The translations under genes were made by a program, and so were the position numbers. DNA of 56,344 nucleotides from a virus (taxonomy: Duplodnaviria > Caudoviricetes), in IMG/VR virus record IMGVR_UViG_3300045996_002189, positions 1 to 56,344 of that record, one strand, 5' to 3'. Shown piece after piece: positions 35,911 through 54,310 of the stretch. The notes under the pieces were generated by a model. It saw only the letters and a program-made list of their open reading frames with translations, made no database searches and had not been told where the DNA came from. The stretch's first letter is position 1. Each line of letters opens with the position of its first letter.

Positions 35911-37605
35911 TCAGGTTGCCGCGACAGTGGTGGTAATGTTGCTTGCAACCGTGTTGGAGACGCCGAGGTTGTTGATCGGGCTGGCGTGGTCGGAGCGCAC
36001 TCTGTTGCCGATGACCGAAGCGTACTTGGATGTTGCAGTCAGCAGAATGCCGGGCTGGGCGGCACCGGAGCCTTCGCCATAGATGTAGTTTTCCATGATG
36101 CGGACGCCGGATGCATTCGCTACCGTGATGCCTCCCGCCGTTCCGTCAGCGCGGATGTTGTTGCCTCGGATCACGATATCGGCATCCACCAGGGATGAGA
36201 AGCTGATGGCGATGTTGCTGACGCCGCCCTCTGCGTTCTCCATCCGGCAATCCGATATCCGCCCCCCGGCACGGAAGCCCGAGAAGACAACTGCCTGAGC
36301 GCAGTTGTTGAACCAGCAGTTGTTCACATCGATGGCCTTGAGGCCAACGTCTTGGTTTCCGGCCGTGGCGTCCCGCTGCACCAGAATGCCGTAACTGTCC
36401 GCTTCTTCCAGGTCTGTACGGTTGAAGTTGATCCACATTCCGTCAACAATCTTAACGATGGCTGCGGGGCGACCCGCCGAATCCCCAAGATAGATGATGC
36501 GGGAGTCGGCAAACGTTATCGTGTCGCACTTCATCCCACCGGGGCCTCTCTGGATCAGCACGAGTTGATCCATGTCGGCGAAGCCAGAGTAGAGTGTGCA
36601 GTCGTGGAAGGAGTATCCTGAACAGCCAGCCAATATCGCTGCCGCCTTGCCGCCGCCGCCGATAGAGCAAGCATCGAACACGCCATCGTAGGACGACTTG
36701 GTCGTGCCGCTCACTTCATCACTGACCTGAACGCCGGTCCCAAAGCCGAAGATCGAGCATCCGATTACCTGAACGTGATGGGTGGCGACGAGATCGAGAC
36801 CGATGCTGGTCGCCGTCTTACCCTCTGGCGTGCCGCGAAACATGCCGACGTTGACTAACTGGAATCCGTTGACGTAGTTACTGTTGTTCTGCACCCGGAT
36901 GCCGCTGGTGTTGGCTGCGGCCAGACTGAAGTCCAATGAGGTGCTTAACGCAATGCCACCGATTGTGATTGCCGTGCCGTAAACTGGGCCGGCTCCTTCA
37001 AGGCGGATTCTGCCGCTGATGTTCAGGGTGGTCTGGCAAGTGTACCAACCGTTCAAGCAAACCGTACCGCCTGACTGTCCTTGGATGAAGTTGATCGCCG
37101 CTTGGATGAAAGGCGACTGATTCCCCACGTTGCCAGTAGCCCCCCACCACTCGGGATATGCCTTGGTGATCGGCGTCGGCGTGTTGTTGCTGGCCGTAGT
37201 TGCAAAAGAGCCATTCAATGATGTGTCGAAAATCTTGGTGCGCGGAGCAACAATCTCGCCGGAAAACGTGACGGTGACACCCGATGCAGGCTTGAGCACG
37301 GCCCCCGGCGCCATGTAGACAACGCCGGTAATGGTCAGTGCCGAGTTTACCCGGTAGGTTCCTGCGGCGAAGAAGGTTGATCCGGTCGCCATGGCACTGA
37401 CGATGGCGGCGCGGGCATCGGTAGTCCCGTCCCCAGCGGAGGAATTGTATTCCAGAACACTGGCAGCGATCTGTCCCGCCGACCTGTCTATTGCGTCAAG
37501 GATAGCGAGCACGGCACCGCGAACGTCGGCGGGGGTAACGTCGCCCGTTGTGTTGTCGTTGATGTTCGTGGTCGCGAGATTGCGGGCGGTGGTGGTGCTA
37601 ACCAT
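35911..37605 (-). CDS. Beta-helix spike/depolymerase (pectate_lyase_3-like)
   Basis: GDGTTDARAAI..A, FAAGTYRV, PEWWGA.G....IQAAI; parallel beta-helix repeats; N-terminal DNTTGDVTPADVR. Confidence 0.8.
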   Translation of the reverse strand: MVSTTTARNLATTNINDNTTGDVTPADVRGAVLAILDAIDRSAGQIAASVLEYNSSAGDGTTDARAAIVSAMATGSTFFAAGTYRVNSALTITGVVYMAPGAVLKPASGVTVTFSGEIVAPRTKIFDTSLNGSFATTASNNTPTPITKAYPEWWGATGNVGNQSPFIQAAINFIQGQSGGTVCLNGWYTCQTTLNISGRIRLEGAGPVYGTAITIGGIALSTSLDFSLAAANTSGIRVQNNSNYVNGFQLVNVGMFRGTPEGKTATSIGLDLVATHHVQVIGCSIFGFGTGVQVSDEVSGTTKSSYDGVFDACSIGGGGKAAAILAGCSGYSFHDCTLYSGFADMDQLVLIQRGPGGMKCDTITFADSRIIYLGDSAGRPAAIVKIVDGMWINFNRTDLEEADSYGILVQRDATAGNQDVGLKAIDVNNCWFNNCAQAVVFSGFRAGGRISDCRMENAEGGVSNIAISFSSLVDADIVIRGNNIRADGTAGGITVANASGVRIMENYIYGEGSGAAQPGILLTATSKYASVIGNRVRSDHASPINNLGVSNTVASNITTTVAAT

Positions 37606-37628
37606 GGCGGTTCCCTTGGAGCGGCAGT

Positions 37629-38096
37629 TCAGCGGAAGCCAGAGGACATCCCGTTCGAGAACCAGCGGGTGGGTGCTTGGGCTGGGGCGGTGTCCCCAGT
37701 GAGGATCAGAATGGGGAAGTTGCCGGTATTGGAAACGCAGAAGAGGGAGACGGCAGAATACTGGCCTGCTGTCGTGAAGATGTCCCCCTTGGACCTGACT
37801 GTTCCGTTATTGACGGCGACCGTCACAGCCCCAGCACCGAGCTGGGCAACCGTGATTTCCCAGCCTGCCGGGACGTTGCTCGGCACGGTGAGGGATACCG
37901 GCGTCGCGCTGTTGAAGGAAATTTTGCGGCGGTTGTCAGCCACGGCAGCGGTGTAGTCGGCGGTCTTCGCGAGAACATCCTGTGTGGTCAGGTCTTCGAG
38001 GGTATCCACAAGGTCGTGGAGATCCTGAACCGACACGCCCCCGGATGTCGTCCCGGACATGTTGGCTTTGAGTTCAGCGAAGGTGCGAATTGTCAC
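37629..38096 (-). CDS. Small fibre/adaptor protein, paralog of 43015..43437, with C-terminal FSNGMSSGF
   Basis: GTG start at 38096 with AGGAGG RBS; RTFAELKANM...DLHDLVDT; VP....GW...Q.GAG.VT...TAGQYS. Confidence 0.8.
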   Translation of the reverse strand: MTIRTFAELKANMSGTTSGGVSVQDLHDLVDTLEDLTTQDVLAKTADYTAAVADNRRKISFNSATPVSLTVPSNVPAGWEITVAQLGAGAVTVAVNNGTVRSKGDIFTTAGQYSAVSLFCVSNTGNFPILILTGDTAPAQAPTRWFSNGMSSGFR

Positions 38097-38110
38097 TAGA
38101 AAGCCTCCTG

Positions 38111-38290
38111 CTATCTTTGGCGCAAGTGGACCCCGTGCAGGAAGCCGAAGATGATGATGAGCAGGGCCGCGAGTATCATGCCGATCTGGACAGCGGTACG
38201 GTGACTGGGCTTGGACTGCAACAGAACCCCAGCCACCCACACGCTGATGCCGGTGATGACGATGACACAGATCAGCCGGGTTAGGGACAT
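38111..38290 (-). CDS. Small two-TM membrane protein
   Basis: 59 aa, below the ORF-track cutoff: MSLTRLICVIVITGISVWVAGVLLQSKPSHRTAVQIGMILAALLIIIFGFLHGVHLRQR. Confidence 0.6.
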   Translation of the reverse strand: MSLTRLICVIVITGISVWVAGVLLQSKPSHRTAVQIGMILAALLIIIFGFLHGVHLRQR

Positions 38291-38296
38291 GTGCCG

Positions 38297-38485
38297 TTAA
38301 TCAAAACGCACGGAGCCAAGATCCGTGATGCCGAAAACGGATACGACCACCCACAGGATCAGCAGGATGACGACGCCGACGTTAAGCACACGCCGGACTG
38401 TCGGCTCCATCGGCACGTAAGTATTGATCAGCCAGAGGACGACGCCGACAACTAAGCAAATAACAATGAATTCCACGATACCCAT
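38297..38485 (-). CDS. Small two-TM membrane protein (Thivi_2564-like)
   Basis: LVVGVVLWLINTYVPM...VRRVLN..VVI..ILW; AAGGAG RBS. Confidence 0.7.
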   Translation of the reverse strand: MGIVEFIVICLVVGVVLWLINTYVPMEPTVRRVLNVGVVILLILWVVVSVFGITDLGSVRFD

Positions 38486-38508
38486 GGTGATTCTCCTTGT
38501 GTGAGGAA

Positions 38509-38862
38509 TTAAGGCACAGTTGGCTTGATGAGAGCCCGGTTGATGGTGAAGGTGTCCGAGTAGGCAGTGGCAATATCTCCGTCCACGTCTTCAAGCTCCA
38601 ATTCGGCATAGAAAATGCCTGATAAATTTTCGGTGTCTTCCGGCTTGAGATTGACCGTGAGCAATCCGGCGAAGGGGTCCGTCACGTCGATATCGTCCAG
38701 GGACGACTTGGCGATTGACGGCGTGCTGGAGAACTTGTCGCCTTTCCAGCGGGAGCAGCGCCAGCGCACGGTTGCGCCTGTGATGTCGAGTGGCTGGCCG
38801 TCCGCGTTGAACAGGGAGAACCGCAACCTTTTGGTGTCCCCGGCAAACATTTCAAAACTCAT
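38509..38862 (-). CDS. BppU-N-like Ig-fold fibre adaptor
   Basis: GDT..L.F.L...DGQPLDITGATV; G...V.L.PEDT..L.G..Y.ELE; ATGA-coupled to the repeat fibre gene. Confidence 0.7.
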   Translation of the reverse strand: MSFEMFAGDTKRLRFSLFNADGQPLDITGATVRWRCSRWKGDKFSSTPSIAKSSLDDIDVTDPFAGLLTVNLKPEDTENLSGIFYAELELEDVDGDIATAYSDTFTINRALIKPTVP

Positions 38863-41800
38863 GCGACCGCTACCTTACCTTCAAGAGCGATGTCTTTGAC
38901 AACGCTGCCTGTTAATTCAATTTCGTAGACGACAGACCCGGTCAGGTCGATGAATGCACCGAGGTCTGTCGCTCCGAAGGGGATGAACCGCGCTGTCGCA
39001 CCCGTTGACATAAGATGCAGGGTGCTGACGGCGTCCGCCGGGAACTGCGGCCGGATGAAGTCCGCAGAAACTTCGGAAGTTATTCGGCCAAGGACGGAGG
39101 ATGCAGCACCGGGTCTGGCAGGGAAGCCACGTTCCGCGACAGCATTGGAGTTAACCGCCTGGAGCGACAGCACGACGTCGGCCGTAACCGGAAGCGGTTT
39201 GCGCTCGGCAACGGTGACCGTCGTGATGCGGGGAAGAACGGAAGCGGCATCCGCGAAGACGGGCGGGACAACCCGGACAGCCACGCCGCTGGTGGTGAGT
39301 TTCTTTGCAACGGATGCGGCGGCACCGGACCGATCCGGGATGGTCCGTGCTGCGGCAGCGGATGTTCCCAGTTTGGGAAGAATGGAGGAGACAGATCCCG
39401 CTGCACCGGGAAGCGTGTAGTTCGCGTTGGATGCTGTGGACAAACGTCCCAGCGTAGATGCCGACGCGCCGGACCGGTTCGGAATCGTTCGCGCCGAGGT
39501 CGATGCCGACGACAGTTTGCCGAGCGTCGATGTGGCGGATGCTGTTCTTGTCGGGATCGTGCGAGCGGCGGACGAACTCGTGTTGATCTTCGGCAGAACC
39601 GATGTGACCGACGAGGTGTTCTGCGGAATGGTCCGGCTGGCGACCGCAGCAGCGACGGGTGTGCCGAGAGTCGATGCTGCCGCGCCAGACCTGTTTGGAA
39701 TGGTACGCGCTGCCGAAGACGCTGTCTGGAGCTTCTGTGTTACCGAAGCCGCCGCTCCGGAGCGGGCAGGTGGCACCCTTTGCGCGGTGACTGCTGTGGT
39801 CGGGCTTCCTAATGTCGATGCCGCAGCACCGGAGCGGTTGGGAATGGTACGGACCGCCGTGGATGCGGTTGTCGGTTTCTGGAGAGTGGACGCGACACTT
39901 GACGTGTTGGCAGGAATCGTCCGCGCCGCTGCGGCAGTCGTCTGAAGAGCAGAGAGAGAGGATGCGACAGCAGCGGTTCTGGCCGGGATTGTCCTGGCAG
40001 CAGTAGCCGACGACGTCAGTTTCGGCGTAAGGGACGCCGCAGTTCCAGATCGCGCCGGTATCGTCCGTGCGGCTGCTGCGGAAGTCGTCGGCTTGGCGAG
40101 CGTTGAGGTTGCCGCTGCGGTGACGCCTGGAACGGTTCTGGCTGCCGCCGCTGTCGTGACGAGTGCCGGGAAAGTCGATGCGGTTGCTGCTTCCCACGGA
40201 CCGACGCCGCCCTGAAATTCGCGGCTCCACTCCGTGGAGAATTCGTCCCCCGTCGATCCCGGCTCGGTTCGAACAGCAGCGGAGGTGTGGATAAGTTTCT
40301 TGAACGTAGCGGCAGAAGATGCCGTCCGGTTGGGGATGGTTCGTGCCGCTGTCGCTGCTGTCTGGATCGCGGGAAGGGCTGAATCCGCAACCCCTGCCCG
40401 GCTCGGTATCGTCCGCGTCGCAGAGACCGCCGTGGTGGTCTTCGATAGAACAGAGGAAGCGGATGCGGTTCTATCCGGTATCGTCCGCGTAGCGGTCGCG
40501 GAAGTCGTTGTTTTAGGGAATGTGGATGCAGCAGCCCCAAGCCTGCCAGGAATAGCGGCGGCGGTAGTCGTCGCCGCCTGGAGGACAGATGCTGCGGCAC
40601 CGGAGCGGTTGGGAATGGTACGGGACGCAGACGCTGCCGTTGTCGGTTTAGTCAGCGCGGATGCGGCAATGCCCGAGCGGCTTGGAATTGTTCTGGCGGA
40701 TACCGCGCTGGTTTGAAGATTCCCAAATGTGGAAGCAGCCGCCCCCGACCTGTTCGGTATGGTCCTGGTGGCGGTTGCGGCGGTGGTGGCCTTGCCGAGA
40801 GTTGACGCAGCGGTGCCAGAGCGACTGGGGATTCCTGTCGTCGCGGAAGCGGCTGTCGTGGCCTTGCCAAGAACGGACGCCGCAGCACCAGAACGGTTCG
40901 GAATGGTGCGCGCTGCTGTTGCGCTGGATTGAGTTGCCCCAAGCGTTGAAGCCGCCGCACCGGAGCGGTTCGGGATGGTCCGCGCTGAAGTCGCAGCCGT
41001 TGTCGGTTTGCCAAGGGTCGAAGCAGCCGCACCCGAACGCGCCGGGATAGTGCGCGCCGCTGTTGCCGCCGTCGTAAGGCTGCCAATTGCCGAGGCGGCT
41101 GCACCAGAGCGGGCCGGGATAGAGCGCGAAGCCGTGGCGCTTGTCGTGGCGTTGCCAAGAACAGATGCTGCGGCACCGGATCGGTTTGGGATCGTCCGTG
41201 CTGAGGCTGCCGCTGTCGTCGGTTTGCTGAGTGTGGAAGCGGCTGCGCCCGTTCGGTTCGGGATTGTCCGGGTCGCCGATGCCGCCGTCGTCAGCGCGCC
41301 AAGCGTTGATGCTGCTGCGCCGGATCGGGACGGAGCAGCCCGAGACGCCGTAGCGGCAGTGGTGGCCTTGCCAAGAACGGTCGCCGCAGCACCAGACCGG
41401 GCAGGAATTGTCCGCGCCGCCGAAACGCTGGTGACGAGTTTTCCGAAAGTGGATGCTACAGCGCCAGACCGTTCAGAGGCTGGAAGCGTGCTGGCAAACG
41501 AGTTCGTGAATTCAGTCGTAAACTCGCGCTGCGTCGATACGATGTAGGTGGATGCGTGAGCACGTAGCTTGCCGAACGAGGAAGAGACTGCCGCGTTGAA
41601 GGCCGGGATGACCTTGAGCGCAACCATCGGCAGGGCGTATAGGCGGGCAGTGCCGCTGGCGCCGTAGGTGTAGGAGGTGGCCGACGTGACGTACCGATAA
41701 CCGCCGGAAACTGTAATGTTGGTGTTGGCGGTGCCGCCCGTCGTCCCCGAGCGCGTTGCTGCAGTATAGTTGGCGTCGTTGGTGAAGGTGTCGCCACTCG

Positions 41801-42275
41801 GGCCTTCGGTGCCGAGCGCCGCGAAGATCAGCGTCTCGGCGGCAACCGTCGTTATCGAGCCGTTCCAGGTGCCTGACGACGCGCCGTTGGTCGTACTGGT
41901 AGCGTCCACGATTGACGGCGTTGCCGCATTGTACAGGCCGGAGACAGCGACAATTGTTATGGCGCGGGAAGTCAGGGTCGAGTGAGTGACCGTAATAATA
42001 TCGCCAGACGTAAGCGCCTGGGTAACGGGGGCCGTCAGGATGGCAGTGCGAACACCCGATGTCCCTGTACCCTGAACCGCCGTAACTTGCTGGGTGTAGG
42101 TATTCTTGGTGTCGCCGGCAGTTACCGTACCCCCCTGCGTCGCGTCGAACGCGGCCAGGATCACAATGGTTGAATTAACATCAACGGACTGACCCGCCGT
42201 CAGGGTATAGGCAATCGATGTCCCAGATGTTTTACTCTGGTTCGAGCCTAAATTGACGACGGTGGGATCGGCCAT
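38859..42275 (-). CDS. Long Ala/Thr/Ser-rich fibre protein with ~34 tandem 24-aa repeats
   Basis: Start MADPTV at 42275; ~220-aa beta-rich N-domain, then repeats of xRSGAAASTLGKxTTAATAARTIP. Confidence 0.8.
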   Translation of the reverse strand: MADPTVVNLGSNQSKTSGTSIAYTLTAGQSVDVNSTIVILAAFDATQGGTVTAGDTKNTYTQQVTAVQGTGTSGVRTAILTAPVTQALTSGDIITVTHSTLTSRAITIVAVSGLYNAATPSIVDATSTTNGASSGTWNGSITTVAAETLIFAALGTEGPSGDTFTNDANYTAATRSGTTGGTANTNITVSGGYRYVTSATSYTYGASGTARLYALPMVALKVIPAFNAAVSSSFGKLRAHASTYIVSTQREFTTEFTNSFASTLPASERSGAVASTFGKLVTSVSAARTIPARSGAAATVLGKATTAATASRAAPSRSGAAASTLGALTTAASATRTIPNRTGAAASTLSKPTTAAASARTIPNRSGAAASVLGNATTSATASRSIPARSGAAASAIGSLTTAATAARTIPARSGAAASTLGKPTTAATSARTIPNRSGAAASTLGATQSSATAARTIPNRSGAAASVLGKATTAASATTGIPSRSGTAASTLGKATTAATATRTIPNRSGAAASTFGNLQTSAVSARTIPSRSGIAASALTKPTTAASASRTIPNRSGAAASVLQAATTTAAAIPGRLGAAASTFPKTTTSATATRTIPDRTASASSVLSKTTTAVSATRTIPSRAGVADSALPAIQTAATAARTIPNRTASSAATFKKLIHTSAAVRTEPGSTGDEFSTEWSREFQGGVGPWEAATASTFPALVTTAAAARTVPGVTAAATSTLAKPTTSAAAARTIPARSGTAASLTPKLTSSATAARTIPARTAAVASSLSALQTTAAAARTIPANTSSVASTLQKPTTASTAVRTIPNRSGAAASTLGSPTTAVTAQRVPPARSGAAASVTQKLQTASSAARTIPNRSGAAASTLGTPVAAAVASRTIPQNTSSVTSVLPKINTSSSAARTIPTRTASATSTLGKLSSASTSARTIPNRSGASASTLGRLSTASNANYTLPGAAGSVSSILPKLGTSAAAARTIPDRSGAAASVAKKLTTSGVAVRVVPPVFADAASVLPRITTVTVAERKPLPVTADVVLSLQAVNSNAVAERGFPARPGAASSVLGRITSEVSADFIRPQFPADAVSTLHLMSTGATARFIPFGATDLGAFIDLTGSVVYEIELTGSVVKDIALEGKVAVA
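38990..41600 (-). repeat. Degenerate 72-bp coding tandem repeat (~34 units)
   Basis: Counted from the translation; one unit is 21 aa; two inserts carry EF[TS]TE[FW] motifs. Confidence 0.9.
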
Positions 42276-42277
42276 GA

Positions 42278-43018
42278 TCAGGTAACCGTCGTCAGGGTGG
42301 CGATGTCGGTATTGGAAATGCGCACGTTGTAGAGACGAACCCGGCGTATCCAACCACTGAAAGGCTGATCAAGGTTGATACGCTTTCCAAGCCGAACCAG
42401 TGTTGCCGACAGCGGCACAGTTACCGACGCGCTGGTGCCGGTGTAAGCGGTGCCATTCGCGTTGCCGTTGCCGTAGGTAGCGCCATTAGCGGCGGCGTAG
42501 GCCAGGGCCACCCTCTGAACAGCATTTGCCGCCCCACCAGTGGTTCCGACAGAGTAATTGGTTGACCCTGCTGGCCTATACTGGCTGCGCGCGTTTATCG
42601 CGGAGTCCATGTAGAATGCCATGAATCTCTCGGTGCCATCTGAGATACCGTTGTCCACGGAAATAAACCGCTGAAATGTGGCGGTTGAAGCGTTCGTCAT
42701 GAAGTCAACGACGAGGGTGCCCGCCGAGGTCGAGAAGGTTGTTCCGGCCAGGGTTGTAACCGCCATCTCATCCTGTCCACCGAACAACAGGCCGAGCGGC
42801 GCGTGCGTGGTCGGGTGGTAGTCGAAACGCGGCGTGTTGGCCCCTACCGTCTGAGTTGCCCCGGCGACATCGGTATAGCTGCCGCCGGACGTGCCCGTGA
42901 AAGTCCACTCGGCGGGCAGCGAGGACATGGCCGTGAAGTCGTAGTCCATGACGAGTGTCGGATCAGAGACGACCGCAGTCCGCCGCCGTCCGGCAGCCGC
43001 CAGCATGACCGGGATCAT
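42278..43018 (-). CDS. Spike-fibre/LamG-like adhesin
   Basis: Start MIPV at 43018 (ATGA overlap); DYDF....LP....FT......TD..G......NTPRFDY.P.T..PLGLL; G.IRRVR.YN. Confidence 0.75.
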   Translation of the reverse strand: MIPVMLAAAGRRRTAVVSDPTLVMDYDFTAMSSLPAEWTFTGTSGGSYTDVAGATQTVGANTPRFDYHPTTHAPLGLLFGGQDEMAVTTLAGTTFSTSAGTLVVDFMTNASTATFQRFISVDNGISDGTERFMAFYMDSAINARSQYRPAGSTNYSVGTTGGAANAVQRVALAYAAANGATYGNGNANGTAYTGTSASVTVPLSATLVRLGKRINLDQPFSGWIRRVRLYNVRISNTDIATLTTVT

Positions 43019-43437
43019 GCTCCGGTGTCTCCGCCGAGATAGACTTGCGGTGCCGTTCCCGCATTGGACACGACGACCACGTAGCAGATAGCGTACTGGC
43101 CTGCCGTCTTGGTGTGCGCTGCCCGACAGAACAGCGCCCCGGTGCCGCCAACGGCGATGGTGACCTGCCCCGCTCCCATCTGGATAACGCCGCATTCCCA
43201 GCCTGTCGGCGCATCGCTGGGAACCGTGAAGGTCACGCCTGACGCCGCGTTGAAGACGATCTTGCGACGGTTATCGGTGGTGGCGACGGCGGTATAGTTT
43301 GCCGTCTTCGTGGACAAGTCCTGAGTAGTGCGGTCTTCGTAGGTATCGACAATGTCGTGGATATCGAGCACATCGATGGCGTTGATGATCCCCGACGGCA
43401 TGTTGGTCTTGAGTTCCGCAGGCGTTCTAACCGTCAT
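43015..43437 (-). CDS. Small fibre/adaptor protein
   Basis: MTVRTPAELKTNMPSG...DIHDIVDT; KTANYT; VP.DAP.GW...QMGAGQVTI. Confidence 0.8.
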   Translation of the reverse strand: MTVRTPAELKTNMPSGIINAIDVLDIHDIVDTYEDRTTQDLSTKTANYTAVATTDNRRKIVFNAASGVTFTVPSDAPTGWECGVIQMGAGQVTIAVGGTGALFCRAAHTKTAGQYAICYVVVVSNAGTAPQVYLGGDTGA

Positions 43438-43495: not shown

Positions 43496-45295
43496 TTAGG
43501 CGACCGTGTAGCCGAGATAGACGTGTGCCTGATTGATTCCGGCATCGACCTGGACGCCGACGATATCAAGCATCTCAACGGCAGCACCGGGACCAGCAGA
43601 ACCGTCCTTGTCCCAGAGCAGGGCGGCTGTGCTGGAATCCTTGTTAACCAGCTTCAGAACCCCGTTCAGCCAAGGGTCGGAGGACGGAGCAAAGCTATTG
43701 GCTCGCAAGTCGGAGGCATCGATCAGGTCGAAACCCCAGGCGAAGTCCAGCACATGAGAATTCCCCGGTGCCGTTGCCTTGATGCGAAAGATGTCGTTGC
43801 CATCCCCGCCCGTCATGGTGATAGAGTGACCGGCGGCTACGATAATATCCTTCCCGGTATCACCATTGACGACCAGCGTGTGCTCACTGGAACCGCTATC
43901 GCGGATGATATTGTCATCGGCGTTACCGATGATGTCGTGGAATCCGGTGTCCTCGATGGTCAGGTGCTCGACATTGGCAGGCATCCTGTAGTCGATGGCG
44001 CTGCTTCTCAGGATGACGGTGTCCTGCCCGCCCTTGTCGGTTACGACATCGCCTGGATTGTCCACGACGTACACGTCGCCGCCGGTCAGACCGGACATGG
44101 CATCCGCGCCTCCGCCACCGTCCAGGCGATCCGATCCGGTGGTGCCTGTCAGGGTGTCGTTGCCGGACGTGCCGGTGAAGGTTCGGGTGGTGGCTGGAGT
44201 ATCAGCGATGGTGAAGAAAGGTGGCGGCGGCGGTGCGTTCGATGGCAGCGGCTCGACCGGCCCGGTGGCCCCAGTCTCGGTCCTCGGGTCGTAGCTGGTG
44301 CTAGTCTGAAGCCCGCCGAGTGAAGCGACAGAGGACCACGGCACCAGCTTGAAGTTGCTGGCATCATCGCCACTGTTTGAGTTGTCGTGAACGATGAACG
44401 CACCGCTGGTGAACTTGCCGCCAAGGTTGACGTTGGTCACATCCAAACCGTCGGTTTGACTCACACCGTCAATGCCGCCAGCAGACACGACCCCAAACTC
44501 GCCCAGATAGGCGTTCGAGTTGCGATCATAGACAGCATATTTGCTTTCGCCCTGGCTAGACGCGATCAGGTAGCCGTTGCCGTCCGCGCCGTAGTAGATT
44601 GTCAGTCCTTCGATATCGGCCACGAGATGCCCGGCGGAGCCAACCTGATCGACTATCGTGTGGGCGGTGCCGCTGGTCGGGTCGGTGCGGTACTTCTCGA
44701 TCTGCCCCGTCTCTTCGGCGGCGTAGAAGTAGCCTTTCTGGTCGTCAACGACCATGCCTTCGATCTGGCCTGAGAAGTTCAGCGTGCGGACGAGGGTGCC
44801 GGTAACGCTACCGCTGGAGCCGTCAAGTTCGAACTGCTTGACCTGGGTGCCGTTATCGGCGCTCACGAATGCGTAGGTCTTGCCGTTCAACTGACCCATC
44901 GTGAATCCGTAAGGCTCGTCCGCATAGCCGGTGTCGATGGTGCCAACTGAAGTCATTTCATCGGCAGTATCGTTGAAGTCATACGTCCAAAAATGGATAT
45001 CCCCGCTCTCCCTGCCCGACGCACCGATGATGGCTGTCGGCGTGGAGCCAAGGCCGAAATTGTAGGACACATCGACGTTATTGAAGGCGCTCCCGATATC
45101 TTCGCTTTCAACGCGGTTACCGGCGAAGTCGTATACGTCGATACGACCGTCCGTATAGCTCTTGTTGGTCCCGACGATCACGCTCTTGGACGTATCGGTC
45201 GGGTGGAGCAGGATGGCCGGATCGTCCATGAAGTCGCCGGTAGCGATGGCGTTCACGGTTTCGACAACGGGAGATACTGAGCCGGGGAAAGCCAT
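43496..45295 (-). CDS. Beta-propeller phytase with C-terminal RTX-like Ca-binding/T1SS-type domain (copy 2)
   Basis: DDPAI, GTNK, NNVD, EPYG, QIEG, AEE, ADIEG, YLIASSQG, TDGLDV, HD, NFK; then GTSGNDTLTG, GGGGADAM, GGDGNDIF, DFAWGFDLID; no signal peptide. Confidence 0.9.
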   Translation of the reverse strand: MAFPGSVSPVVETVNAIATGDFMDDPAILLHPTDTSKSVIVGTNKSYTDGRIDVYDFAGNRVESEDIGSAFNNVDVSYNFGLGSTPTAIIGASGRESGDIHFWTYDFNDTADEMTSVGTIDTGYADEPYGFTMGQLNGKTYAFVSADNGTQVKQFELDGSSGSVTGTLVRTLNFSGQIEGMVVDDQKGYFYAAEETGQIEKYRTDPTSGTAHTIVDQVGSAGHLVADIEGLTIYYGADGNGYLIASSQGESKYAVYDRNSNAYLGEFGVVSAGGIDGVSQTDGLDVTNVNLGGKFTSGAFIVHDNSNSGDDASNFKLVPWSSVASLGGLQTSTSYDPRTETGATGPVEPLPSNAPPPPPFFTIADTPATTRTFTGTSGNDTLTGTTGSDRLDGGGGADAMSGLTGGDVYVVDNPGDVVTDKGGQDTVILRSSAIDYRMPANVEHLTIEDTGFHDIIGNADDNIIRDSGSSEHTLVVNGDTGKDIIVAAGHSITMTGGDGNDIFRIKATAPGNSHVLDFAWGFDLIDASDLRANSFAPSSDPWLNGVLKLVNKDSSTAALLWDKDGSAGPGAAVEMLDIVGVQVDAGINQAHVYLGYTVA

Positions 45296-45331
45296 GTTGC
45301 TCACACGCTAAATGTTTAAAAGATCAGGAAT

Positions 45332-45386: not shown

Positions 45387-47180
45387 TCAGAGGCCGGTGT
45401 AGATATGCGCGTTGTTGATGCCCGCGTCGATCTGGACGCCGAGGATCGTAACCACTTCGACCGCAGCAACCGTGCTGTTGGCCGAGCCGTCCTGGTCCCA
45501 CATCAGTTTGACATCCGAACCGGAGTCCACCAGCGACAGCACGCCGTTGGCGAACGGGTCGGATGTCGGAGCGTAACTGCCTGCCACCAGCGGGGAAGCG
45601 TCGATCAGGTCGTCGCCCCAGGTGAAGTCAGAGATGGTGTTGCCTGCGCCAGTCGCCGCGTTGGTGGAGTAGCGGAAAATATCGTTATCGGCCCCGCCCG
45701 TCGCGGCCACGTCACGGGTACCAACGCGGATATTGTCGTCGCCGGTCATGCCCAAGAAGGTCATCGTGCCGGATGAGGTTCCGCTGGCCGACATGATGTT
45801 GTTGTCAGCATTACCCGTCACCGTGCGGTTGGTGCTGCCCTGGACGACGACATGCTCCATGTTGGACGACATGGTGTAGTTGCCGGTGTACCAGAGTTCG
45901 ACCGTATCCTGCCCGCCCGTATCGCTGGCAATGGTGTCGCCTGCCTCGGAGATGACGTACTGATCGTCGCCGGTCGATCCGTTGTAGGTGTCAGAACCGG
46001 CCAACCCGTTGAAATATTCCGGCGCACTGGTGCCGGTCAGGGTGTCGTTTGCGGACGTGCCAGTGTAGGTGATGGTCGCGGCATCGGTCGTGTTGATCGT
46101 GAAGAACGCAGGTGCGGCCGGGGCCGTGACCGGCAGGGCTGCGCGCGGGTCGTAGCTTGAGGCGTCGAGGGTAAGGCCGCCGAGGTTGGCGATCTCGTCA
46201 AACTCGATTAGCTTGAAGTTGCTGCTGTCGTTGCTGGTGTTCTCACCGTCATGGGCGACGAACAGTCCTTCATCGAACGCAGCCGTGCCCAGGTTGACGT
46301 TGGTTACGTCAAGTCCATCGGTCTTGGTCACGGCATCGATGGTGCTGCCATTCCCGGACAGGCTGAACTTGCCGAGATAGGTATTGGACCCCTGGAGTTC
46401 GTAGACGGCATACTTGCTCTCGAACTGCGACGAGGCGATCAGATAGCCCGTACCGTTATCGCCGTAATAGATCGACATGCCTTCCACGTCGGCGGTGAGA
46501 TTGCCGCCGGAGACGGTATCGACCGTCGTGTAAGTGCTGCCGGACGCGGGATCGGTGCCGTACTTGTAGATACCGTAGTCTTCTTCGGCGATGTAGAGGT
46601 CGCCGTTGACATCGTCAATAACGATGCCTTCAACCTGAGTGCTGTTGGGAACGGTAATGGTGCGGACCAGGGTGCCGGAAACGACGCCGGCAGACTCCGT
46701 CAATTCCCACTGCTTGACCGTGCTGCCGTTGTCTTCCGACGCAAAGGCGTAGAACTTCTCGCCCGTCGAGGTGGCGAGACGGCCCATCGCGAAGCCATAC
46801 GGCTCATTGGTGAAGCCGGTCGAGATCGAGCCGACCGATTCCATCTCGTCGCTCGTGGCGGCAAAATCGTAGGTGAAGAAGTCGATGGTGCCCGCTTCGC
46901 GATTGGTGGCACCAATCACGTTATCCAGCGAGCCGAGGTTGTAGCGCAGATCGACGTTGTTGAATGCGGTGCCGCTGTCCTCGGTATCGGTCAGGGTGGG
47001 GGAGGTGGAGATGTCGTAGGCGTAGAGACCGCCGTTGGTGTAGTCCTTGTTGGAGGTCACGAGCACGCTGCTGGCCGGTGTGGTCGGGTGGATCAGAATG
47101 GCCGGATCGTCGGAAAAGTCTCCGGTACCGGGGACATCGGGGGTCTGAGCGTCAGCGGTAACTGAACCGGGGAAGGCCAT
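45387..47180 (-). CDS. Beta-propeller phytase with C-terminal RTX-like Ca-binding/T1SS-type domain (copy 1)
   Basis: DDPAILIHP, SNK, NNVDLRY, TNRE, EPYG, QVEG, AEED, ADVEG, YLIASSQ, TDGLDV, AHDG.N, NFK; then GTSANDTLTG, GGADNDIF, DFTWGDDLID. Confidence 0.9.
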   Translation of the reverse strand: MAFPGSVTADAQTPDVPGTGDFSDDPAILIHPTTPASSVLVTSNKDYTNGGLYAYDISTSPTLTDTEDSGTAFNNVDLRYNLGSLDNVIGATNREAGTIDFFTYDFAATSDEMESVGSISTGFTNEPYGFAMGRLATSTGEKFYAFASEDNGSTVKQWELTESAGVVSGTLVRTITVPNSTQVEGIVIDDVNGDLYIAEEDYGIYKYGTDPASGSTYTTVDTVSGGNLTADVEGMSIYYGDNGTGYLIASSQFESKYAVYELQGSNTYLGKFSLSGNGSTIDAVTKTDGLDVTNVNLGTAAFDEGLFVAHDGENTSNDSSNFKLIEFDEIANLGGLTLDASSYDPRAALPVTAPAAPAFFTINTTDAATITYTGTSANDTLTGTSAPEYFNGLAGSDTYNGSTGDDQYVISEAGDTIASDTGGQDTVELWYTGNYTMSSNMEHVVVQGSTNRTVTGNADNNIMSASGTSSGTMTFLGMTGDDNIRVGTRDVAATGGADNDIFRYSTNAATGAGNTISDFTWGDDLIDASPLVAGSYAPTSDPFANGVLSLVDSGSDVKLMWDQDGSANSTVAAVEVVTILGVQIDAGINNAHIYTGL

Positions 47181-47329: not shown

Positions 47330-48928
47330 TTAGGCTATTCCAGCCTGCGCCACGGTTTTGCCCCTGATGTGGAATTGCGCTGCCGTATTTGTCGAATTAT
47401 TGGAGATGCAGAGCACTTCGACCATCGCGCCCGCCCCCCCAGTCCGACGATGGTCGGTGCCGTTCTCGAACACGAAGGTCGTTGCGGATGCCGCCACCTT
47501 CTGGAAAGTGATGGTGCCGCTGGTCGAAGTTTGAAGCGCCCGGCACGTCCAGCCGGGATGAGCGTTGTCCGGTAGAGTCACGACGACATCAGTGCCGGGA
47601 TCTGTTGTGGTGTTTCTGTACAGGATTCCATCATCAAGCAGGAATGGTCCACGGGCAGCAGTCAGCGACCTTGAGTACGCCCCGCCACCATTTACGGCAG
47701 TGACGTTAAAATTGGTGGGGGTTGACGAGCTGCTTATGCCGCCGATGTGTCCGATCAGCTTTGGCTCACTGCTTGAGTTGATCGACACTACACCGACAAA
47801 CTGGGAGCCCGCCGGCTTGGTCCCAGCCATGAAAATGTTTTCCAGCGTGCTAGACGCGTACGACAGATTTGCTCTAACGACTGACCTGATCGTGTTTGAT
47901 GTTGCGGCAGGACTTCCGACAAAACACCAAACGTTGCGAAGCGAGCAACCGTTATTGACGCGCCAATCAATGATGTCGGTTACGGTTGCGTACCCAGAAT
48001 TAACGTCATTGAGCGCGATGAAGAAGTTATCGAAATGAACGTTGGAAATTGTGATGGCGGGATTGGTGGCGGTGTTGATAAACTTTACCACCGGCCCGGC
48101 AAAGAAGGTTGTTTCGCATTTTGTGTTCGTGAAGAACATTTGGCTTGGATTGTCATTGTTGGCGGCGGTCCCCTGCTCGATCAGGATCGCCCCCGCCTTG
48201 AACGACTCGAAACGGCAGCCGTAGAAGTAATTGGCGTTGACGGAGTCGGCGCTGTACCCGAAAGTTCCTGATGTTTCGGACATACTGTTGCGCAACCGAA
48301 CGCAGTATTCGGTCGTGGTGCTGCACCAGTCGAAAAAGCAGTTCATAACTCGGCTGTCCCACCACTCGACAGCATCGATTCCGTTGCCGGAATTGTTCAT
48401 GAACTTGCAATTGTCGATCAGAACACTGGATGCAAAAACAGTCCGAAGAAGTGAGCCAGTGTTATCCTGGCCGTGAAAGCAAAGGTCGCGAAAGACAGAG
48501 TCGCCGTTGCGTTCTTGTTGACCAGTCGTCCAGTCGCCGAAGCCGGAAAGATCGAGCAGAAAACCTGATCCCTGTTTCCTGATAATCGAGTTCCACCCGT
48601 CACCGAAGATTTTGATCTTCTCGGGAAGTATCAATGTGTTGGCGGTGATGTAGTAGTGTCCGGACGGAACGTAGACGGCCCCACCGCCGCCGGGCGATGC
48701 CGCAGCGGCAGCGATGGCATCAAGAAACGCCTGGGTGTCGATTGTTGCTCGGGCCGGCTTGTCGCCAGATACGGTAACTTCCGTCCCGATTGCGCCGAAC
48801 TCCTTGACGGAAAAGCACGTTCTTCCTGCCACCGTATCGATGAAGTCATGCATATCGCTGATGGTGGTGCCGCCGGTAACCCCCGACGGCATATTGGTCT
48901 TAAGCGTTGCTGGGGTTCTAGCGGTCAT
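47330..48928 (-). CDS. Beta-helix spike/depolymerase (pectate_lyase_3-like) flanked by adaptor-family N- and C-domains
   Basis: SVKEFGA.G...DTQAF.DAI.AA...GG.VYVPSG.Y; N-terminal RTPATLKTNMPSG..DMHDFIDT; C-terminal LP.NA.PGW.C..LQ. Confidence 0.85.
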   Translation of the reverse strand: MTARTPATLKTNMPSGVTGGTTISDMHDFIDTVAGRTCFSVKEFGAIGTEVTVSGDKPARATIDTQAFLDAIAAAAASPGGGGAVYVPSGHYYITANTLILPEKIKIFGDGWNSIIRKQGSGFLLDLSGFGDWTTGQQERNGDSVFRDLCFHGQDNTGSLLRTVFASSVLIDNCKFMNNSGNGIDAVEWWDSRVMNCFFDWCSTTTEYCVRLRNSMSETSGTFGYSADSVNANYFYGCRFESFKAGAILIEQGTAANNDNPSQMFFTNTKCETTFFAGPVVKFINTATNPAITISNVHFDNFFIALNDVNSGYATVTDIIDWRVNNGCSLRNVWCFVGSPAATSNTIRSVVRANLSYASSTLENIFMAGTKPAGSQFVGVVSINSSSEPKLIGHIGGISSSSTPTNFNVTAVNGGGAYSRSLTAARGPFLLDDGILYRNTTTDPGTDVVVTLPDNAHPGWTCRALQTSTSGTITFQKVAASATTFVFENGTDHRRTGGAGAMVEVLCISNNSTNTAAQFHIRGKTVAQAGIA

Positions 48929-48939
48929 AATTCAATTCC

Positions 48940-49356: not shown

Positions 49357-49373
49357 GGCAGGTCTCCAGAATC

Positions 49374-49401: not shown

Positions 49402-49436
49402 GGGGGCAGGGAGGGGTGGAGGTGAGTGGTTGGCGG

Positions 49437-49727: not shown

Positions 49728-49736
49728 CGCCCCTCC

Positions 49737-50201: not shown

Positions 50202-50216
50202 CTATTACTCCGGGGG

Positions 50217-51374: not shown

Positions 51375-51376
51375 GC

Positions 51377-54310
51377 TCAGACCCTCGGCACGGTTGTCTT
51401 GCCGCGCTCGTCGTAGCCGGTCGGATTTCCGGAGGTGTTTTTCAAATTGAACAACTTCTGTCTAGCAAGCAAAACGCGGGCGTCAGTCGGCGCGACGTAA
51501 TGCTGGTACATGTCGAGTGCCGCCATGACCTGGATCATGTAGTCATTGGCGTCGGTATCCACGAACGATCCGCCGCGCAGAGGGTGAACGCCACCAACTG
51601 TGCGGCGACCGACTGCTCCGACCATATCGGAGCCACCGGTACTAAATGTCACTGGAGAACCACCAACCGAGAGCGAAAGCTTGCAGGTCAGGCCGGAGGA
51701 TTGAACGGCGTAGTAGGGAATGCCGCGCGTCAAGCCGGTAGGGACCTTGGTGTTATCAGTCACCCAATACGGCTCGCTGGAACTGCGGACGCCGGAGACC
51801 GTCATCACCATGCCATCCAGGATACTGGACAGCGCGGGTGGAGCCGTGGCAAATACCAGGGTCTGGCCGTCGGTCTTGTACGTGACCTGACTGACCGCGC
51901 CGACCCATTGACCGTAATACCAGTACCTGCGGTTTTCCACATTGTCGGTCAGGCCGTTCATGCAGATATTGCCGTAGCTTGCCGCTTCCAGCGGGTCCGG
52001 CTTCATCAGGTAGTATTCTGAACCCGAGTCATTATGGTAACCGCCGCTCATGACGGTCGGACAGTGAGCCCACCACTCGGCACGGGACTTGATTCTCGGA
52101 TACTCGCTAATGCCATAGGCGTATGAGGTGGCGTGCAAACCAAAGGTGTGCATCCAGATTTTATAGGTAGGTTCGTTGTTCGGCCAAAGAAGTTTCAGGT
52201 CCTGGAACCGACGACCGTCCGTCCGGTTCAATCCGCCACGCCACGCATCTTCCTCAAGCGGCAGTTCCTCGGTCATCTCGGCCCAATGATCGACATAGTC
52301 GCGGATCATGACCCAGTGAGGGTCGGTTGGATTGCCGCATCCCAATGCGGCTCCTATCGGGCGGAAAGAATGTCCGACGCCCCTGATCTGTCCCCGCCAG
52401 CAAATGCCGCCATAAGGGATTCCCGCTCGGTCGCTGGTGCCGTAGAACCCGTAGCCATTGGACTCGTGAACGCCGGGCAGGGTAGCCTCGACATACATCA
52501 GGTCAAGCCAGTGCTGGTCCCCCTCGGAAATGTACGGCCAGTGCGCCATCTGCGGAAAGTGCGCGGTATCGATGTGCAGGATTTCCTGCTTGCCATTGGC
52601 ATCGGGAGGGTTGGCGAAACGCAGGGACTCGTCAGTATTGGCGGGCTTTCCCTGCCCGTAGATGCTAGTTCCGAGCACGCTGCTGTTGGTTGATTTGGTT
52701 GGCGGAAGATAGGAGATGACTTTCCGGGTCGTGCGATGGAGTCCGACACCGTCCATCGCCCCCATGCCCCAACCGGCGACACGGGCGTATCGTTGGAAAG
52801 CGGAAAGCTGCGCGGCTGTGGCGCGGGCATTGGCGGCAATGCAGCGCGCCGTGGATTTCGTGGTCGTCCACGGGATCATCTCGTGGTCGGAGACGTCGTC
52901 CTGTTCCTGGCGCAGGGGACCGCGCTTGGCTGGCCGGTACTCCCAGACCGGAGGGGTCATCGAAAAAGCCGGGTTGTTCACATCGAACGGCGGGACAAAA
53001 TTGGTCAGCACACCGTAGGCGACATTGTGACGGTAGATGATCTTCGGCGGCGTCACGACGCTGTTCGTGGCGACGTCGAACCAGTCCATCGTGCCTTCAG
53101 TCCCGGCACTGGCGACGAACCCGCCCTTCCAGGTGTTGACGGCACCCCACCCGGTCGTTCCGAGTGCGGCGCCCCGGATGACCGTGCCGTTGACGCTGAG
53201 GTTCAGGTCAACGCGAAGCCCCTGCTCGTCTGTGGCGGTATCGGTTGACCATCCCTGAATCGACCTGAAAAGAAACTGGATGCGTTTAGGATTCCCGGTC
53301 GTGCCGCCCCAGGCGCGGGCATAGAGTAGGCATCCGAGGTTCTGCGTCGGATCGCGGGTTCCGCTAGAGAGCGTGGCGATGTCGGACGCCCGCCACTCGG
53401 TGCAGACCGGCCCACCGACGACGCGCTCCACCCATGTGCTGTTGCTCGTTCCCAGCATGTCGGCGGACCTGAATCTCTTGGGTCCGCGCTCCGCAGTCAA
53501 GGTTCCCGAAGCATTTCGGCCCTTGAAACTGGTGAATTCGTATTGCAGCGCAACCTTGGAGGTAATGGCGGCGGGATCTGTGTGGAGAGGCGTGTCGGTC
53601 GCGGTCCAACTGCCGCTGGCACGCTGCCACGTTACCGTCTTGGTTCCGCCCACTGCAATGACCGGCATCAGGAAACGAACCTGCGCCAACTTCAGGCTGC
53701 CATCGCTCCAGGTGGTGCGATTGGAAACCTGCTGCGGGATACGGACGCCATCGACGGTAATGACAGCTATGGAACCGGTTGGCACATCGCCCTTCTTGAA
53801 CCACTGGGCAGTGGAGACTTCCTGGTCCGCCCACGATGGGATGGTGTCGAAATTCTCGACCGTCGTGGTGAAGAGAGTCGCTCCGGCAACAACAGCCTCC
53901 ACCGTCATCGCGATGGTGTGGGTCTCGGCGAACCCGCTGACCTGAATGGCTACCGTATAGTTCCCGGCAGCCAAGGCTGTGCTGCCGACCACGAGTTTGT
54001 AGCCGGATGTCCAATCGCCGGTCAGGGCGACCCGTCCCCCGGCATTGTTGGTCAGGGTTACGGTGTAGTTGACACCCTCGAACTCATTGGTGAATTCGGA
54101 CGTGAAGGGGGTCGTCCCGGAATCCGGGAAATTGCTGAAGACAAGCGCCGCGATCTCGGTTCCGGCCGGGGCCGTATCAAGAACCGTGACGGCAGTGGGC
54201 GCGACCGAACGCGCACCGACGATGGGAGCGGCCTGCCCGACGCGGACAATTCTGAGGTTGGGGCCGAGGACGTAACCGCCGCCCGGCCTCCTGATGACGC
54301 CGCCAGCCAC
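51377..54310 (-). CDS. Large glycan-lyase-like protein (exo-rhamnogalacturonan lyase/YetA-like N-terminal motifs)
   Basis: 977 aa; F.KGDVP.G...P.Q...TTWSDGSLK, GGPVCTEWR, DTAHFP...PY...GD..WLD, QIRG. The family call is tentative. Confidence 0.55.
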   Translation of the reverse strand: MAGGVIRRPGGGYVLGPNLRIVRVGQAAPIVGARSVAPTAVTVLDTAPAGTEIAALVFSNFPDSGTTPFTSEFTNEFEGVNYTVTLTNNAGGRVALTGDWTSGYKLVVGSTALAAGNYTVAIQVSGFAETHTIAMTVEAVVAGATLFTTTVENFDTIPSWADQEVSTAQWFKKGDVPTGSIAVITVDGVRIPQQVSNRTTWSDGSLKLAQVRFLMPVIAVGGTKTVTWQRASGSWTATDTPLHTDPAAITSKVALQYEFTSFKGRNASGTLTAERGPKRFRSADMLGTSNSTWVERVVGGPVCTEWRASDIATLSSGTRDPTQNLGCLLYARAWGGTTGNPKRIQFLFRSIQGWSTDTATDEQGLRVDLNLSVNGTVIRGAALGTTGWGAVNTWKGGFVASAGTEGTMDWFDVATNSVVTPPKIIYRHNVAYGVLTNFVPPFDVNNPAFSMTPPVWEYRPAKRGPLRQEQDDVSDHEMIPWTTTKSTARCIAANARATAAQLSAFQRYARVAGWGMGAMDGVGLHRTTRKVISYLPPTKSTNSSVLGTSIYGQGKPANTDESLRFANPPDANGKQEILHIDTAHFPQMAHWPYISEGDQHWLDLMYVEATLPGVHESNGYGFYGTSDRAGIPYGGICWRGQIRGVGHSFRPIGAALGCGNPTDPHWVMIRDYVDHWAEMTEELPLEEDAWRGGLNRTDGRRFQDLKLLWPNNEPTYKIWMHTFGLHATSYAYGISEYPRIKSRAEWWAHCPTVMSGGYHNDSGSEYYLMKPDPLEAASYGNICMNGLTDNVENRRYWYYGQWVGAVSQVTYKTDGQTLVFATAPPALSSILDGMVMTVSGVRSSSEPYWVTDNTKVPTGLTRGIPYYAVQSSGLTCKLSLSVGGSPVTFSTGGSDMVGAVGRRTVGGVHPLRGGSFVDTDANDYMIQVMAALDMYQHYVAPTDARVLLARQKLFNLKNTSGNPTGYDERGKTTVPRV

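Follow-up and report, generated by a model that had tools for sequence, protein, structure and literature searches.

Interchangeable receptor-binding proteins that are mounted on conserved N-terminal pieces and small adaptors are already known. In the anchor-branched systems of G7C (gp66/gp63.1), CBA120 (TSP1-4), Klebsiella KP32, Menlow and PhiK64-1, conserved N-terminal peptides dock on T4gp10-like domains, as described in the accessible part of the paper (Latka et al., 2019; PMC6872550). The Pseudomonas phage Pa223 protein gp52 (PDB 9ny6) binds the capsid via its first 41 residues, and the available part of that report suggests a role in adsorption over capsid reinforcement (10.1101/2025.06.11.659172). 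For cyanophage A-1(L), the accessible text describes neck fibers located on the neck ring via an N-terminal domain, and trimeric beads chained head to tail (PMC10966104). Here we analyzed a DNA stretch of 56,344 nucleotides (the window), which is the entire linear IMG/VR virus record IMGVR_UViG_3300045996_002189 (Caudoviricetes; completeness estimate 62%, CheckV). A block of fiber and enzyme genes in this window encodes four copies of a short aromatic peptide, F-x3-[FWM]-x3-F (the F-motif), and four proteins that have a conserved N-terminal piece of about 40 residues in common (the N-module). Gene order across phages couples the two elements, which together may form a portable joint between virion proteins. 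The proteins concerned and their elements are the following.

51377-54310, minus strand: enzyme-like multidomain protein of 977 residues, with F-motif 1
54080-54106, minus strand: F-motif 1, FTSEFTNEF, residues 69-77 of the 977-residue protein, in a loop of its N-terminal beta-sandwich
47330-48928, minus strand: 532-residue protein with N-module (48809-48928), pectate-lyase-like beta-helix and, at the C-terminus, part of the adaptor beta-sandwich
43015-43437, minus strand: 140-residue protein with N-module (43318-43437) and adaptor-type beta-sandwich, without F-motif tail (F-tail)
38859-42278 (to 42353 from an upstream TTG), minus strand: fiber protein of 1139 residues (1164 from the TTG), with F-motifs 2 and 3
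41496-41522, minus strand: F-motif 2, FTTEFTNSF, where the N-terminal domain of the fiber passes into the repeat array
40215-40241, minus strand: F-motif 3, FSTEWSREF, in a 20-residue insertion within one fiber repeat unit
37629-38096, minus strand: 155-residue adaptor with N-module (37977-38096), beta-sandwich and F-tail
37632-37682, minus strand: C-terminal extension of the adaptor, 17 residues, ending FSNGMSSGFR
37635-37661, minus strand: F-motif 4, FSNGMSSGF, one residue short of the stop of the 155-residue frame
35911-37605, minus strand: right-handed beta-helix spike of 564 residues with a divergent N-module (37471-37605)

A six-frame scan of the window for F-x3-[FWM]-x3-F returned eight matches. 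Four are the motifs listed above, in the frames of long open reading frames (ORFs); the remaining four (33249-34113, minus strand) are antisense to a transposase gene and lie in non-coding frames. The block (15 ORFs, 6516 residues) contains four motifs compared to 0.59 expected from 2000 per-protein shuffles (P = 0.006), and the 22 ORFs outside it (9968 residues) contain none, with 0.60 expected. A stricter pattern chosen post hoc, F[ST]x[EDGS][FWM][ST]x[EDGS]F, gave four matches versus 0.0015 expected (0 of 2000 shuffles). The original prediction, made from the sequence of the window, had located four motifs and four N-modules in the block, and translations, the six-frame scan and a hidden Markov model (HMM) of the module agree with it; run over the window ORFs, the HMM detected no additional N-module. 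The prediction that both fiber motifs break the 24-residue repeat applies to F-motif 3 alone, whose repeat unit is 44 residues long instead of the usual 24, whereas F-motif 2 is located 36 residues ahead of the first repeat and breaks none.

The motifs had also been placed in loops or at chain ends, and the two that were modelled (in the 977- and 155-residue proteins) indeed lie outside buried cores. The AlphaFold model of the 977-residue protein, built with 42 alignment rows, has a mean predicted local distance difference test (pLDDT) of 90.6; residues 65-79 around the motif fall below 50 and are without secondary structure in the N-terminal beta-sandwich. In the adaptor model, the N-module is predicted as two helices (residues 6-12 and 23-37, pLDDT 72-78), the beta-sandwich (residues 41-134) exceeds 90 and the tail (residues 141-155) is disordered with values of 41-44. 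The family of the 977-residue protein comprises 44 relatives and the window copy, and 36 of these 45 members contain the motif: 18 in the N-terminal loop only, eight at the C-terminus only, four at both places, five internally and one at the C-terminus and internally. In the nine members without the motif the loop is short or absent and the flanking strands are retained. The adaptor family (16 relatives and the window copy, 17 aligned rows) contains a 17-residue tail extension in four rows, all of 155 residues, where it follows the conserved ..GDTA and ends with FSNGMSSGFR, FSNGMSPGFG or FSSGFSSGFS; the other 13 rows end with ..GDTAx. Since FSSGFSSGFS is found among these tails, the Met of the window copy stands for the middle Phe. 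Relaxed variants read FSxGFSxGF, FSxEF.. and F..W..F. Taken together, models and families show a mobile short linear motif in segments predicted to be flexible and exposed.

To find such tails in other viruses, IMG/VR was searched with a degenerate DNA pattern for F-T-x-E-F-T-x-E-F (scan 1), which matched at least 115 stretches; a narrower DNA pattern matched 11. After removal of short frames, open ends, within-ORF repeats and duplicates, 59 distinct ORFs of at least 80 residues remained among the matches listed. In 28 of these 59 the motif is located exactly one residue from the stop, compared to 0.33 expected for uniform placement, and five further motifs are 0-5 residues away from it. Carriers among the matches listed have 48-1137 residues, and their loci range from 31 to 69% GC. 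The 28 listed tails are encoded by 27 different DNA 27-mers in which both Phe, all four Thr and both Glu codons occur, and this variety of synonymous codons shows that selection acts on the peptide. An alignment of 27 tails has seven invariant positions, F T x E F T x E F, in columns that were preset by the search pattern itself; a hydrophobic residue mostly stands just before the first Phe (..G-I-F-T-E-E-F-T-x-E-F-x). A replication with F-S-x-E-F-S-x-E-F (scan 2) yielded 34 distinct ORFs, seven with the motif one residue from the stop (0.21 expected) and one with the motif two residues from it. A pattern for the G-type tail matched 24 stretches, of which one (L179, see below) was read as a true pair of tail and module and nearly all others are short or low-complexity frames.

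These scans bear on the idea that the motif has no function at the protein level and is a side effect of a 12-nucleotide (nt) tandem repeat, the ribosome-binding site of the next gene or chance, which we consider hardly credible. Short ORFs made of simple tandem repeats account for many pattern matches, several of which come from giant-virus bins, and the G-type scan, with one true pair in 24, was nearly all noise. The excess of motifs in the block argues against this idea, as do, among the matches listed, the 28 motifs that share one distance from the stop, whose DNA words differ in 27 of 28 cases and mix synonymous codons. In addition, the motif occurs in internal loops far from start codons, and gaps to the next gene are variable with an inconsistent frame. 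A ribosome-binding-site or readthrough origin was ruled out by the variable gaps and the internal-loop copies.

No family for the motif was found in Pfam and PHROGs. A profile of the F-tail matched none of the PDB chains at E-values (E) up to 10, and PDB searches with single sequences returned only spurious ubiquitin, PPR and ribosomal matches. Among 8.1 million papers in PubMed Central (PMC) and 0.36 million preprints (subscription journals were outside the scope), 27 contain motif strings, of which the 20 listed are irrelevant by title (old scans, ecology acronyms), and strings of the module sequence gave no match. A separate sequence, FT[VL]EFTVEFDV[DE][VL].., recurs at the start of stop-to-stop frames on low-GC contigs (L059, L074, L076, L085, L086, L094, L115, L122, L126, L133, L141 and L154); by appearance it is strand-like and distinct from the C-terminal tail.

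The N-modules of the 140-, 532- and 155-residue proteins are 43-57% identical over 40 residues, and those of the 140- and 532-residue proteins share 21 of 37 residues (E 8e-12). The module of the spike (..NINDNTTGDVTPADVRGAV..) is divergent, with 20% identity to that of the 155-residue adaptor; it aligns readily to intermediates such as L179 and is of the type encoded 3' of F-tails elsewhere. A profile of the N-module was compared with 1.84 billion representative proteins and found 50 matches, three of which are repeat artefacts. The modules found in this way almost always occupy residues 1-40 and precede cargo of 139-963 residues, and three of the proteins are also F-tailed (P0047; P0076, ..FSSDFSNDFF; P0078, ..FSTEFSSEFG). 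Eleven homologues of the spike have the module, and others have a short MALTKSRNRM.. start instead. Judged from these sequences, the module is exchangeable among spike homologues and is itself portable. Metagenome scans with the spike and adaptor alignments revealed no confirmed relative, and a scan of the genome collection with the N-module gave no match.

Tail and module are coupled by gene order. Among the matches listed in scan 1 there are 34 distinct C-terminal tails, and the next gene begins -3 to +35 nt away. Reading the 34 N-termini of these listed next genes by eye, we found 23 to be module-like, seven to belong to a 'MARTIQQIK..' class and four to be unrelated. The module-like ones consist of a helix, a turn (..N-S-I-D-P-x-D-V.. 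or ..G-x-x-I-S-x-Q-D-L-R-D..) and a second helix. The coupling was tested with an HMM built from the four modules of the window only; the first 60 residues of genes were scored, and controls were taken from the same loci. A looser control of 530 ORFs was exceeded at its 95th percentile by 16 of the 34 among the matches listed (p = 1e-11). When controls were restricted to ORFs of at least 150 residues on the same strand, 14 of the 34 passed compared to 11 of 211 (Mann-Whitney p = 3e-9), so the co-occurrence of motif and module across phages that had been proposed from the window is borne out. When the listed matches were collapsed by eye to about 12 lineages, five passed (binomial p = 2e-4).

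A class from high-GC loci (L116, L148, L155) has N-termini reading MADTIRTEAEALALLVT.GSREISAQDLRDCVYS, which align without gaps to the module of the 155-residue adaptor (16 of 33 positions by hand count, 39% by computed alignment). In the reverse direction, all seven loci fetched by a marine-type N-module have an F-tailed upstream gene; the seven are close kin, and one of their tails, ..FTEQFTEEFK, is outside the reach of the DNA pattern. Likewise, the seven IMG/VR loci with the main module of the window are all on contigs found independently by the motif pattern, six of them from the clade of the window itself. On one 77-kb marine phage contig (L167 and L169) there are two separate tail-module pairs, in each of which an ORF of about 630 residues with the tail is directly followed by a module protein. 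For the 'MARTI..' class, an assignment as baseplate J-like proteins, based on a weak PHROG match, was rejected, since relatives in cultured Flavobacterium phages are annotated as nucleotidyltransferase or hypothetical; in Flavobacterium phage fF4 the protein upstream of such a relative ends with ..GIGFMVIENDFTVR and has no clear F-tail.

Gene adjacency could also arise if the F-motif binds a common third partner (for instance a membrane, a polymer on the host surface, or a groove in the portal, neck or capsid) and tails and modules merely travel in shared fiber cassettes. The carriers are indeed very different, namely neck proteins, a LysM-like protein, long fibers and enzymes, and the motif sometimes occurs without an adjoining module gene, as in a 102-residue protein before a small terminase subunit and in homologues of the 977-residue protein before a 385-residue family. 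Furthermore, the accessible text on cyanophage A-1(L) describes tails of a LysM baseplate protein inserted into the hub or tube initiator (PMC10966104). Enrichment of the module downstream of tails relative to other long same-strand ORFs of the same loci speaks against a third partner, as do the very short gaps of -3 to +35 nt among the matches listed and a case of joint gain of tail and fiber gene described below. We regard this explanation as distinctly improbable.

Several pairs can be named. In the window the F-tailed 155-residue gene is followed after 23 nt by the ATG of the spike gene with its module, so that the predicted direct succession of these two genes is an instance of the tail-module rule. 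The nearest parallel is L179, in which a 107-residue protein ending with ..GGGFSTGFSSGFA is followed after 10 nt by a 181-residue fiber protein (phrog_24754) starting with ..LLADNTTGDISPQDLRDYV... By its PHROG match (phrog_82, E 2e-12) this carrier belongs to the head-closure (Hc1) proteins of the neck; the tail, ..GFSTGFSSGFA, has 18 residues, and relatives of the carrier in cultured Roseobacter phages are annotated as 'head-tail joining proteins'. The homologue in Roseobacter phage CRP-406 is 18 residues shorter (..LQLEKP) and the tail terminator gene follows directly, without tail and without fiber gene. Thus, between L179 and CRP-406, tail and fiber gene are present or absent jointly.

A second, unrelated Hc1 protein (phrog_25, E 8e-22) was found in L222; it ends with ..FSDEFSPEFQ, and 4 nt after its gene a 747-residue protein with the N-terminal region ..TNLPSTTGAITAAVLR.. 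(7.4 bits) is encoded. This head-closure protein also matches the first 100 residues of phrog_10356, an 852-residue 'virion structural protein' (E 4e-11), and this match suggests that natural fusions of head-closure and long fiber-like proteins exist. In L204, from the clade of the window, a small protein encoded past capsid and Big_2 genes ends with ..FSSEFSTEFI; a module gene of the 140-residue type (42 bits) begins in overlap with its stop. The homologous small protein of L003 (..DFSPEFSGEFF) is followed by a 443-residue protein, whose first 36 residues match another fiber-connector N-terminus, phrog_677, and whose body matches 'head decoration' phrog_9703 (E 2e-8).

The fold of the adaptor raises the alternative that the socket for the N-module is a T4 gp10-like beta-sandwich, formed by the body of the 140- and 155-residue proteins and the C-terminus of the 532-residue protein, or else the capsid or neck itself, as in G7C, CBA120, the Klebsiella phages and the Pa223 spike. 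The F-motif would then serve another purpose, for example to clasp trimers, to nucleate folding or to tag the protein for an assembly chaperone. In Foldseek comparisons the adaptor body matched the Pa223 capsid spike best (E 2.5e-8, 104 columns), followed by T4 gp9 (E 7e-4), a Klebsiella phage baseplate protein, the N-terminus of CBA120 TSP4 (E 3e-3) and T4 gp10 (E 0.026); template modelling (TM) scores for T4 gp9, TSP4 and T4 gp10 are 0.39-0.45. Judged from the models, the adaptor resembles a T4 gp10-like domain and is a candidate for a branching platform. The attachments via N-terminal peptides and N-terminal residues cited at the outset fit this alternative too. Yet most tailed upstream proteins lack a gp10-like domain (neck or LysM-like proteins of 91-107 residues, fibers of 600-850 residues) and the module gene still comes next. 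The joint gain of tail and fiber gene in L179 relative to CRP-406 also argues against it, and the location of the motif one residue from the C-terminus is left unexplained. We consider this alternative unlikely as a replacement for docking between motif and module; attachment to the sandwich or the particle and an F-tail joint are compatible with each other.

Several observations weigh against a joint of F-motif and N-module. The loci are partly kin, so that the p-values given above overstate independence, and among the matches listed four of the 34 downstream genes are unrelated (two encode small terminase subunits) and seven belong to the other class. In scan 2 only two to three of seven downstream N-termini exceeded the HMM threshold: L204 and L222 clearly pass and L207 is marginal, L210 and L303 are module-like by eye only, L272 is ambiguous, L319 has a different N-terminus and L265 is of low complexity. 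In relatives of the window a C-tailed homologue of the 977-residue protein is followed by the 385-residue family, which is without a helical N-module. The numerical match of four motifs and four modules noted in the window does not carry over to relatives, whose 20-kb loci (partial genomes) hold two modules with one to three motifs and thus give no 1:1 count. Within the window, only one of the four modules follows a C-terminal tail; upstream of the others are a 138-residue protein, a phytase and a 117-residue ORF, and docking of these three would therefore need pairing in trans with the three loop motifs. Finally, by analogy the module could dock on the T4 gp10-type sandwich of the adaptor instead. 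A complex prediction with three copies each of adaptor residues 38-155 and spike residues 1-60, run with alignments, gave a score of 0.01 (mark 0.32; controls were not folded) and speaks neither for nor against docking.

The sequence comparisons give good support for a functional link of motif and module, and direct docking of the F-motif into the N-module is the best explanation for it, one that we hold to be somewhat probable. The peptide (hydrophobic)-F-[ST]-x-[EDG]-F-[ST]-x-[EDG]-F would be a short linear docking peptide that a virion protein presents either in a flexible loop or on a disordered C-tail, where it ends one residue from the stop. The most likely partner would be the two-helix N-module of about 40 residues at the start of a second virion protein, in most cases the one encoded by the next gene, and both would form a portable tail-to-head joint. 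In the window, the N-module of the adaptor would engage an F-motif, probably F-motif 2 or 3 of the 1139-residue fiber encoded just upstream, and the F-tail of the adaptor would hold the beta-helix spike. The loop motifs left over on the fiber and on the 977-residue enzyme would take up the modules of the 140- and 532-residue proteins. Enzymes and small knob domains would in this way be arranged as a branched array, with its anchor on the capsid or close to the junction of head and tail. Binding, its stoichiometry, the pairing of individual motifs with modules and the site on the virion are inferred, and the trimeric socket of the original prediction is a candidate form of the docking only. Tail and module may also act in general as a portable connector of two parts, used by tailed phages of distant lineages (31-72% GC; siphophage-, myophage- and marine fiber-cassette types) to hang fibers, spikes and enzymes on necks, capsids, baseplates and one another; this generalization is tentative and falls short of being probable.

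The window (GC 57-66%) has almost every gene on the minus strand and contains, outside the block, a lambda-like siphophage tail module according to PHROG matches. The features around the block are as follows.

33356-34585, plus strand: transposase of 409 residues (phrog_506, E 7e-77), between the cassette and the neck genes
31958-32422, minus strand: tail-completion/Neck1 protein (phrog_169, E 1e-21)
31541-31957, minus strand: tail terminator (phrog_179, E 1e-20)
20785-25584: tape measure (PHROG match)
11050-16056: J-like central fiber (PHROG match)
1.4-10 kb: tail fiber/pectate-lyase proteins; minor tail proteins were also found (PHROG matches)

In transcription order the block (56.3 to 35.9 kb) is followed by the transposase on the opposite strand, which is of the type of insertion sequences and likely is one, then by Neck1 and the tail terminator. 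Head-tail adaptor and head-closure genes, expected in the region 32.4-35.9 kb, were not recognized there. In the closest relatives (L003, L004, L161-L165 and L204) the same cassette begins a few genes past the major capsid protein (phrog_247, E 3e-97, in L003). With capsid genes before and neck genes after the cassette, the earlier prediction that the block lies toward the head side among the head-tail genes was right, and by gene position the cassette does not share the attachment at the tail tip. The tail-tip fiber genes at 1-16 kb contain neither N-module nor F-motif in the motif scan and the module HMM of the window, and the block is therefore a separate display system. The further proposal of capsid fibers agrees with the gene position, the fold match to the Pa223 capsid spike and the 'head decoration' match in a relative; on the other side, both tail carriers that can be named (L179 and L222, from two other lineages) are head-closure proteins of the neck. 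Neck or collar fibers and capsid fibers are about equally likely in this phage. Among isolates in INPHARED we found no match to the 18.4-kb block, the 977-residue protein or the 140-residue protein, and isolated phages also gave no match to the marine-type downstream protein or the tail protein of L148. Among the tail genes there is a homing-endonuclease-like gene (29242-30213, minus strand; phrog_314, E 3e-34), which is adjoined by a 596-residue ORF (27195-28985) without family match.

The cassette encodes at least two receptor-binding or depolymerase-like proteins, the 532- and 564-residue beta-helix types. The body of the 977-residue protein showed a weak fold match to a PL26 rhamnogalacturonan lyase (E 5e-6, TM about 0.15-0.2), and its label as lyase-like is a lead from modelling, short of a finding. 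The fiber consists of an N-terminal domain and about 30 units of 24 residues with a consensus near RTIPNRSGAAASTLGKPTTAATSA. Its frame is open for 1164 codons, and its codon-position GC pattern is unusual because the repeat is rich in Ala, Ser, Thr, Pro and Arg. The 24-residue units are without a Pfam or PHROG family, and the N-terminal domain matched only unnamed viral clusters in the ESM Atlas. The 532- and 140-residue proteins are 57% identical in the module (residues 1-37) and 32% identical at the sandwich end (residues 448-525, E 6e-6); the former resembles the 140-residue adaptor with an inserted beta-helix.

Inside the cassette two tandem genes (43496-45304 and 45387-47180, minus strand) encode proteins of 600 residues that match the beta-propeller phytase family PF02333 (E 3e-69 and 1e-68) and an RTX calcium-binding repeat. 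They have neither module nor motif, and a phytase is unusual in a structural block of a phage. Between the 140-residue gene and the fiber gene lies a 305-residue ORF (42278-43195, minus strand), the 5' end of which overlaps the 140-residue gene and the stop of which overlaps the fiber ATG. By eye, its C-terminal 240 or so residues look jelly-roll or lectin-type, and relatives have an ORF of 291-380 residues at this position.

The fibers and enzymes a phage displays set its host range, and most metagenomic cassettes cannot be wired from sequence. A predictive pair of peptide and module would give a rule for virion architecture in uncultured phages, explain how depolymerase genes are exchanged without damage to assembly and offer a compact engineering handle. 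If tail and module are such a general connector, the wiring of a virion would be legible from sequence, with a tail ending gene A and a module starting gene B. New receptor-binding genes would be pluggable by the module alone, and phages could be re-armed by swapping cargo behind a module of about 40 residues. For this phage the joint would mean a second, polysaccharide-directed enzyme set of about 20 kb near head or neck, apart from the tail-tip fibers.

A concept search of the literature returned Klebsiella receptor-binding protein papers. In PMC papers and preprints, Pfam, PHROGs and PDB we found no description of a Phe tail or loop as the other half of such a joint, or of its use on neck proteins, fibers and enzymes of distant phages (subscription journals and the supplementary peptide logos of Latka et al. 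lay outside this scope). As far as the accessible part of PMC6872550 describes them, the anchor-branched systems are like the window in having several enzymes or spikes per cassette, a conserved N-terminal module on swappable cargo with a branching logic, and a small adaptor with a beta-sandwich akin to T4 gp9/gp10 and the CBA120 TSP4 N-terminus (by Foldseek). There, however, the N-terminal peptide acts as the plug and the gp10-like domain as its socket, and a C-terminal Phe tail is not described in that part of the paper. They are also located at the tail tip, whereas the cassette of the window lies between capsid and neck genes, and the joint proposed for the window would occur, unlike theirs, on neck proteins and fibers of unrelated phages too.

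Pa223 gp52, a trimeric spike with an N-terminal attachment domain of about 40 residues, is like the adaptor. Its N-terminus binds the capsid lattice directly and showed no sequence similarity to the N-module, and an F-motif is not reported in the available part of that preprint (10.1101/2025.06.11.659172); by this analogy, attachment of the window proteins to the capsid is a candidate only. The small LysM baseplate protein of A-1(L), which inserts its N- and C-terminal tails into neighbors, is comparable to the F-tailed head-closure proteins of L179 and L222. The A-1(L) system uses other proteins and motifs, and the accessible text of that paper does not describe a conserved portable peptide across phage families (PMC10966104). 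The comparison with a cellulosome, made in the original prediction, is appropriate as an analogy of logic and not of components, since Pfam (E up to 0.01) found no cohesin and no dockerin in ten block proteins. A dockerin is a calcium-binding domain of 70 residues compared to a peptide of 9-12 residues here; what cohesin-dockerin pairs and the proposed joint share is a repeated, portable two-part connection that displays several polysaccharide-degrading enzymes.

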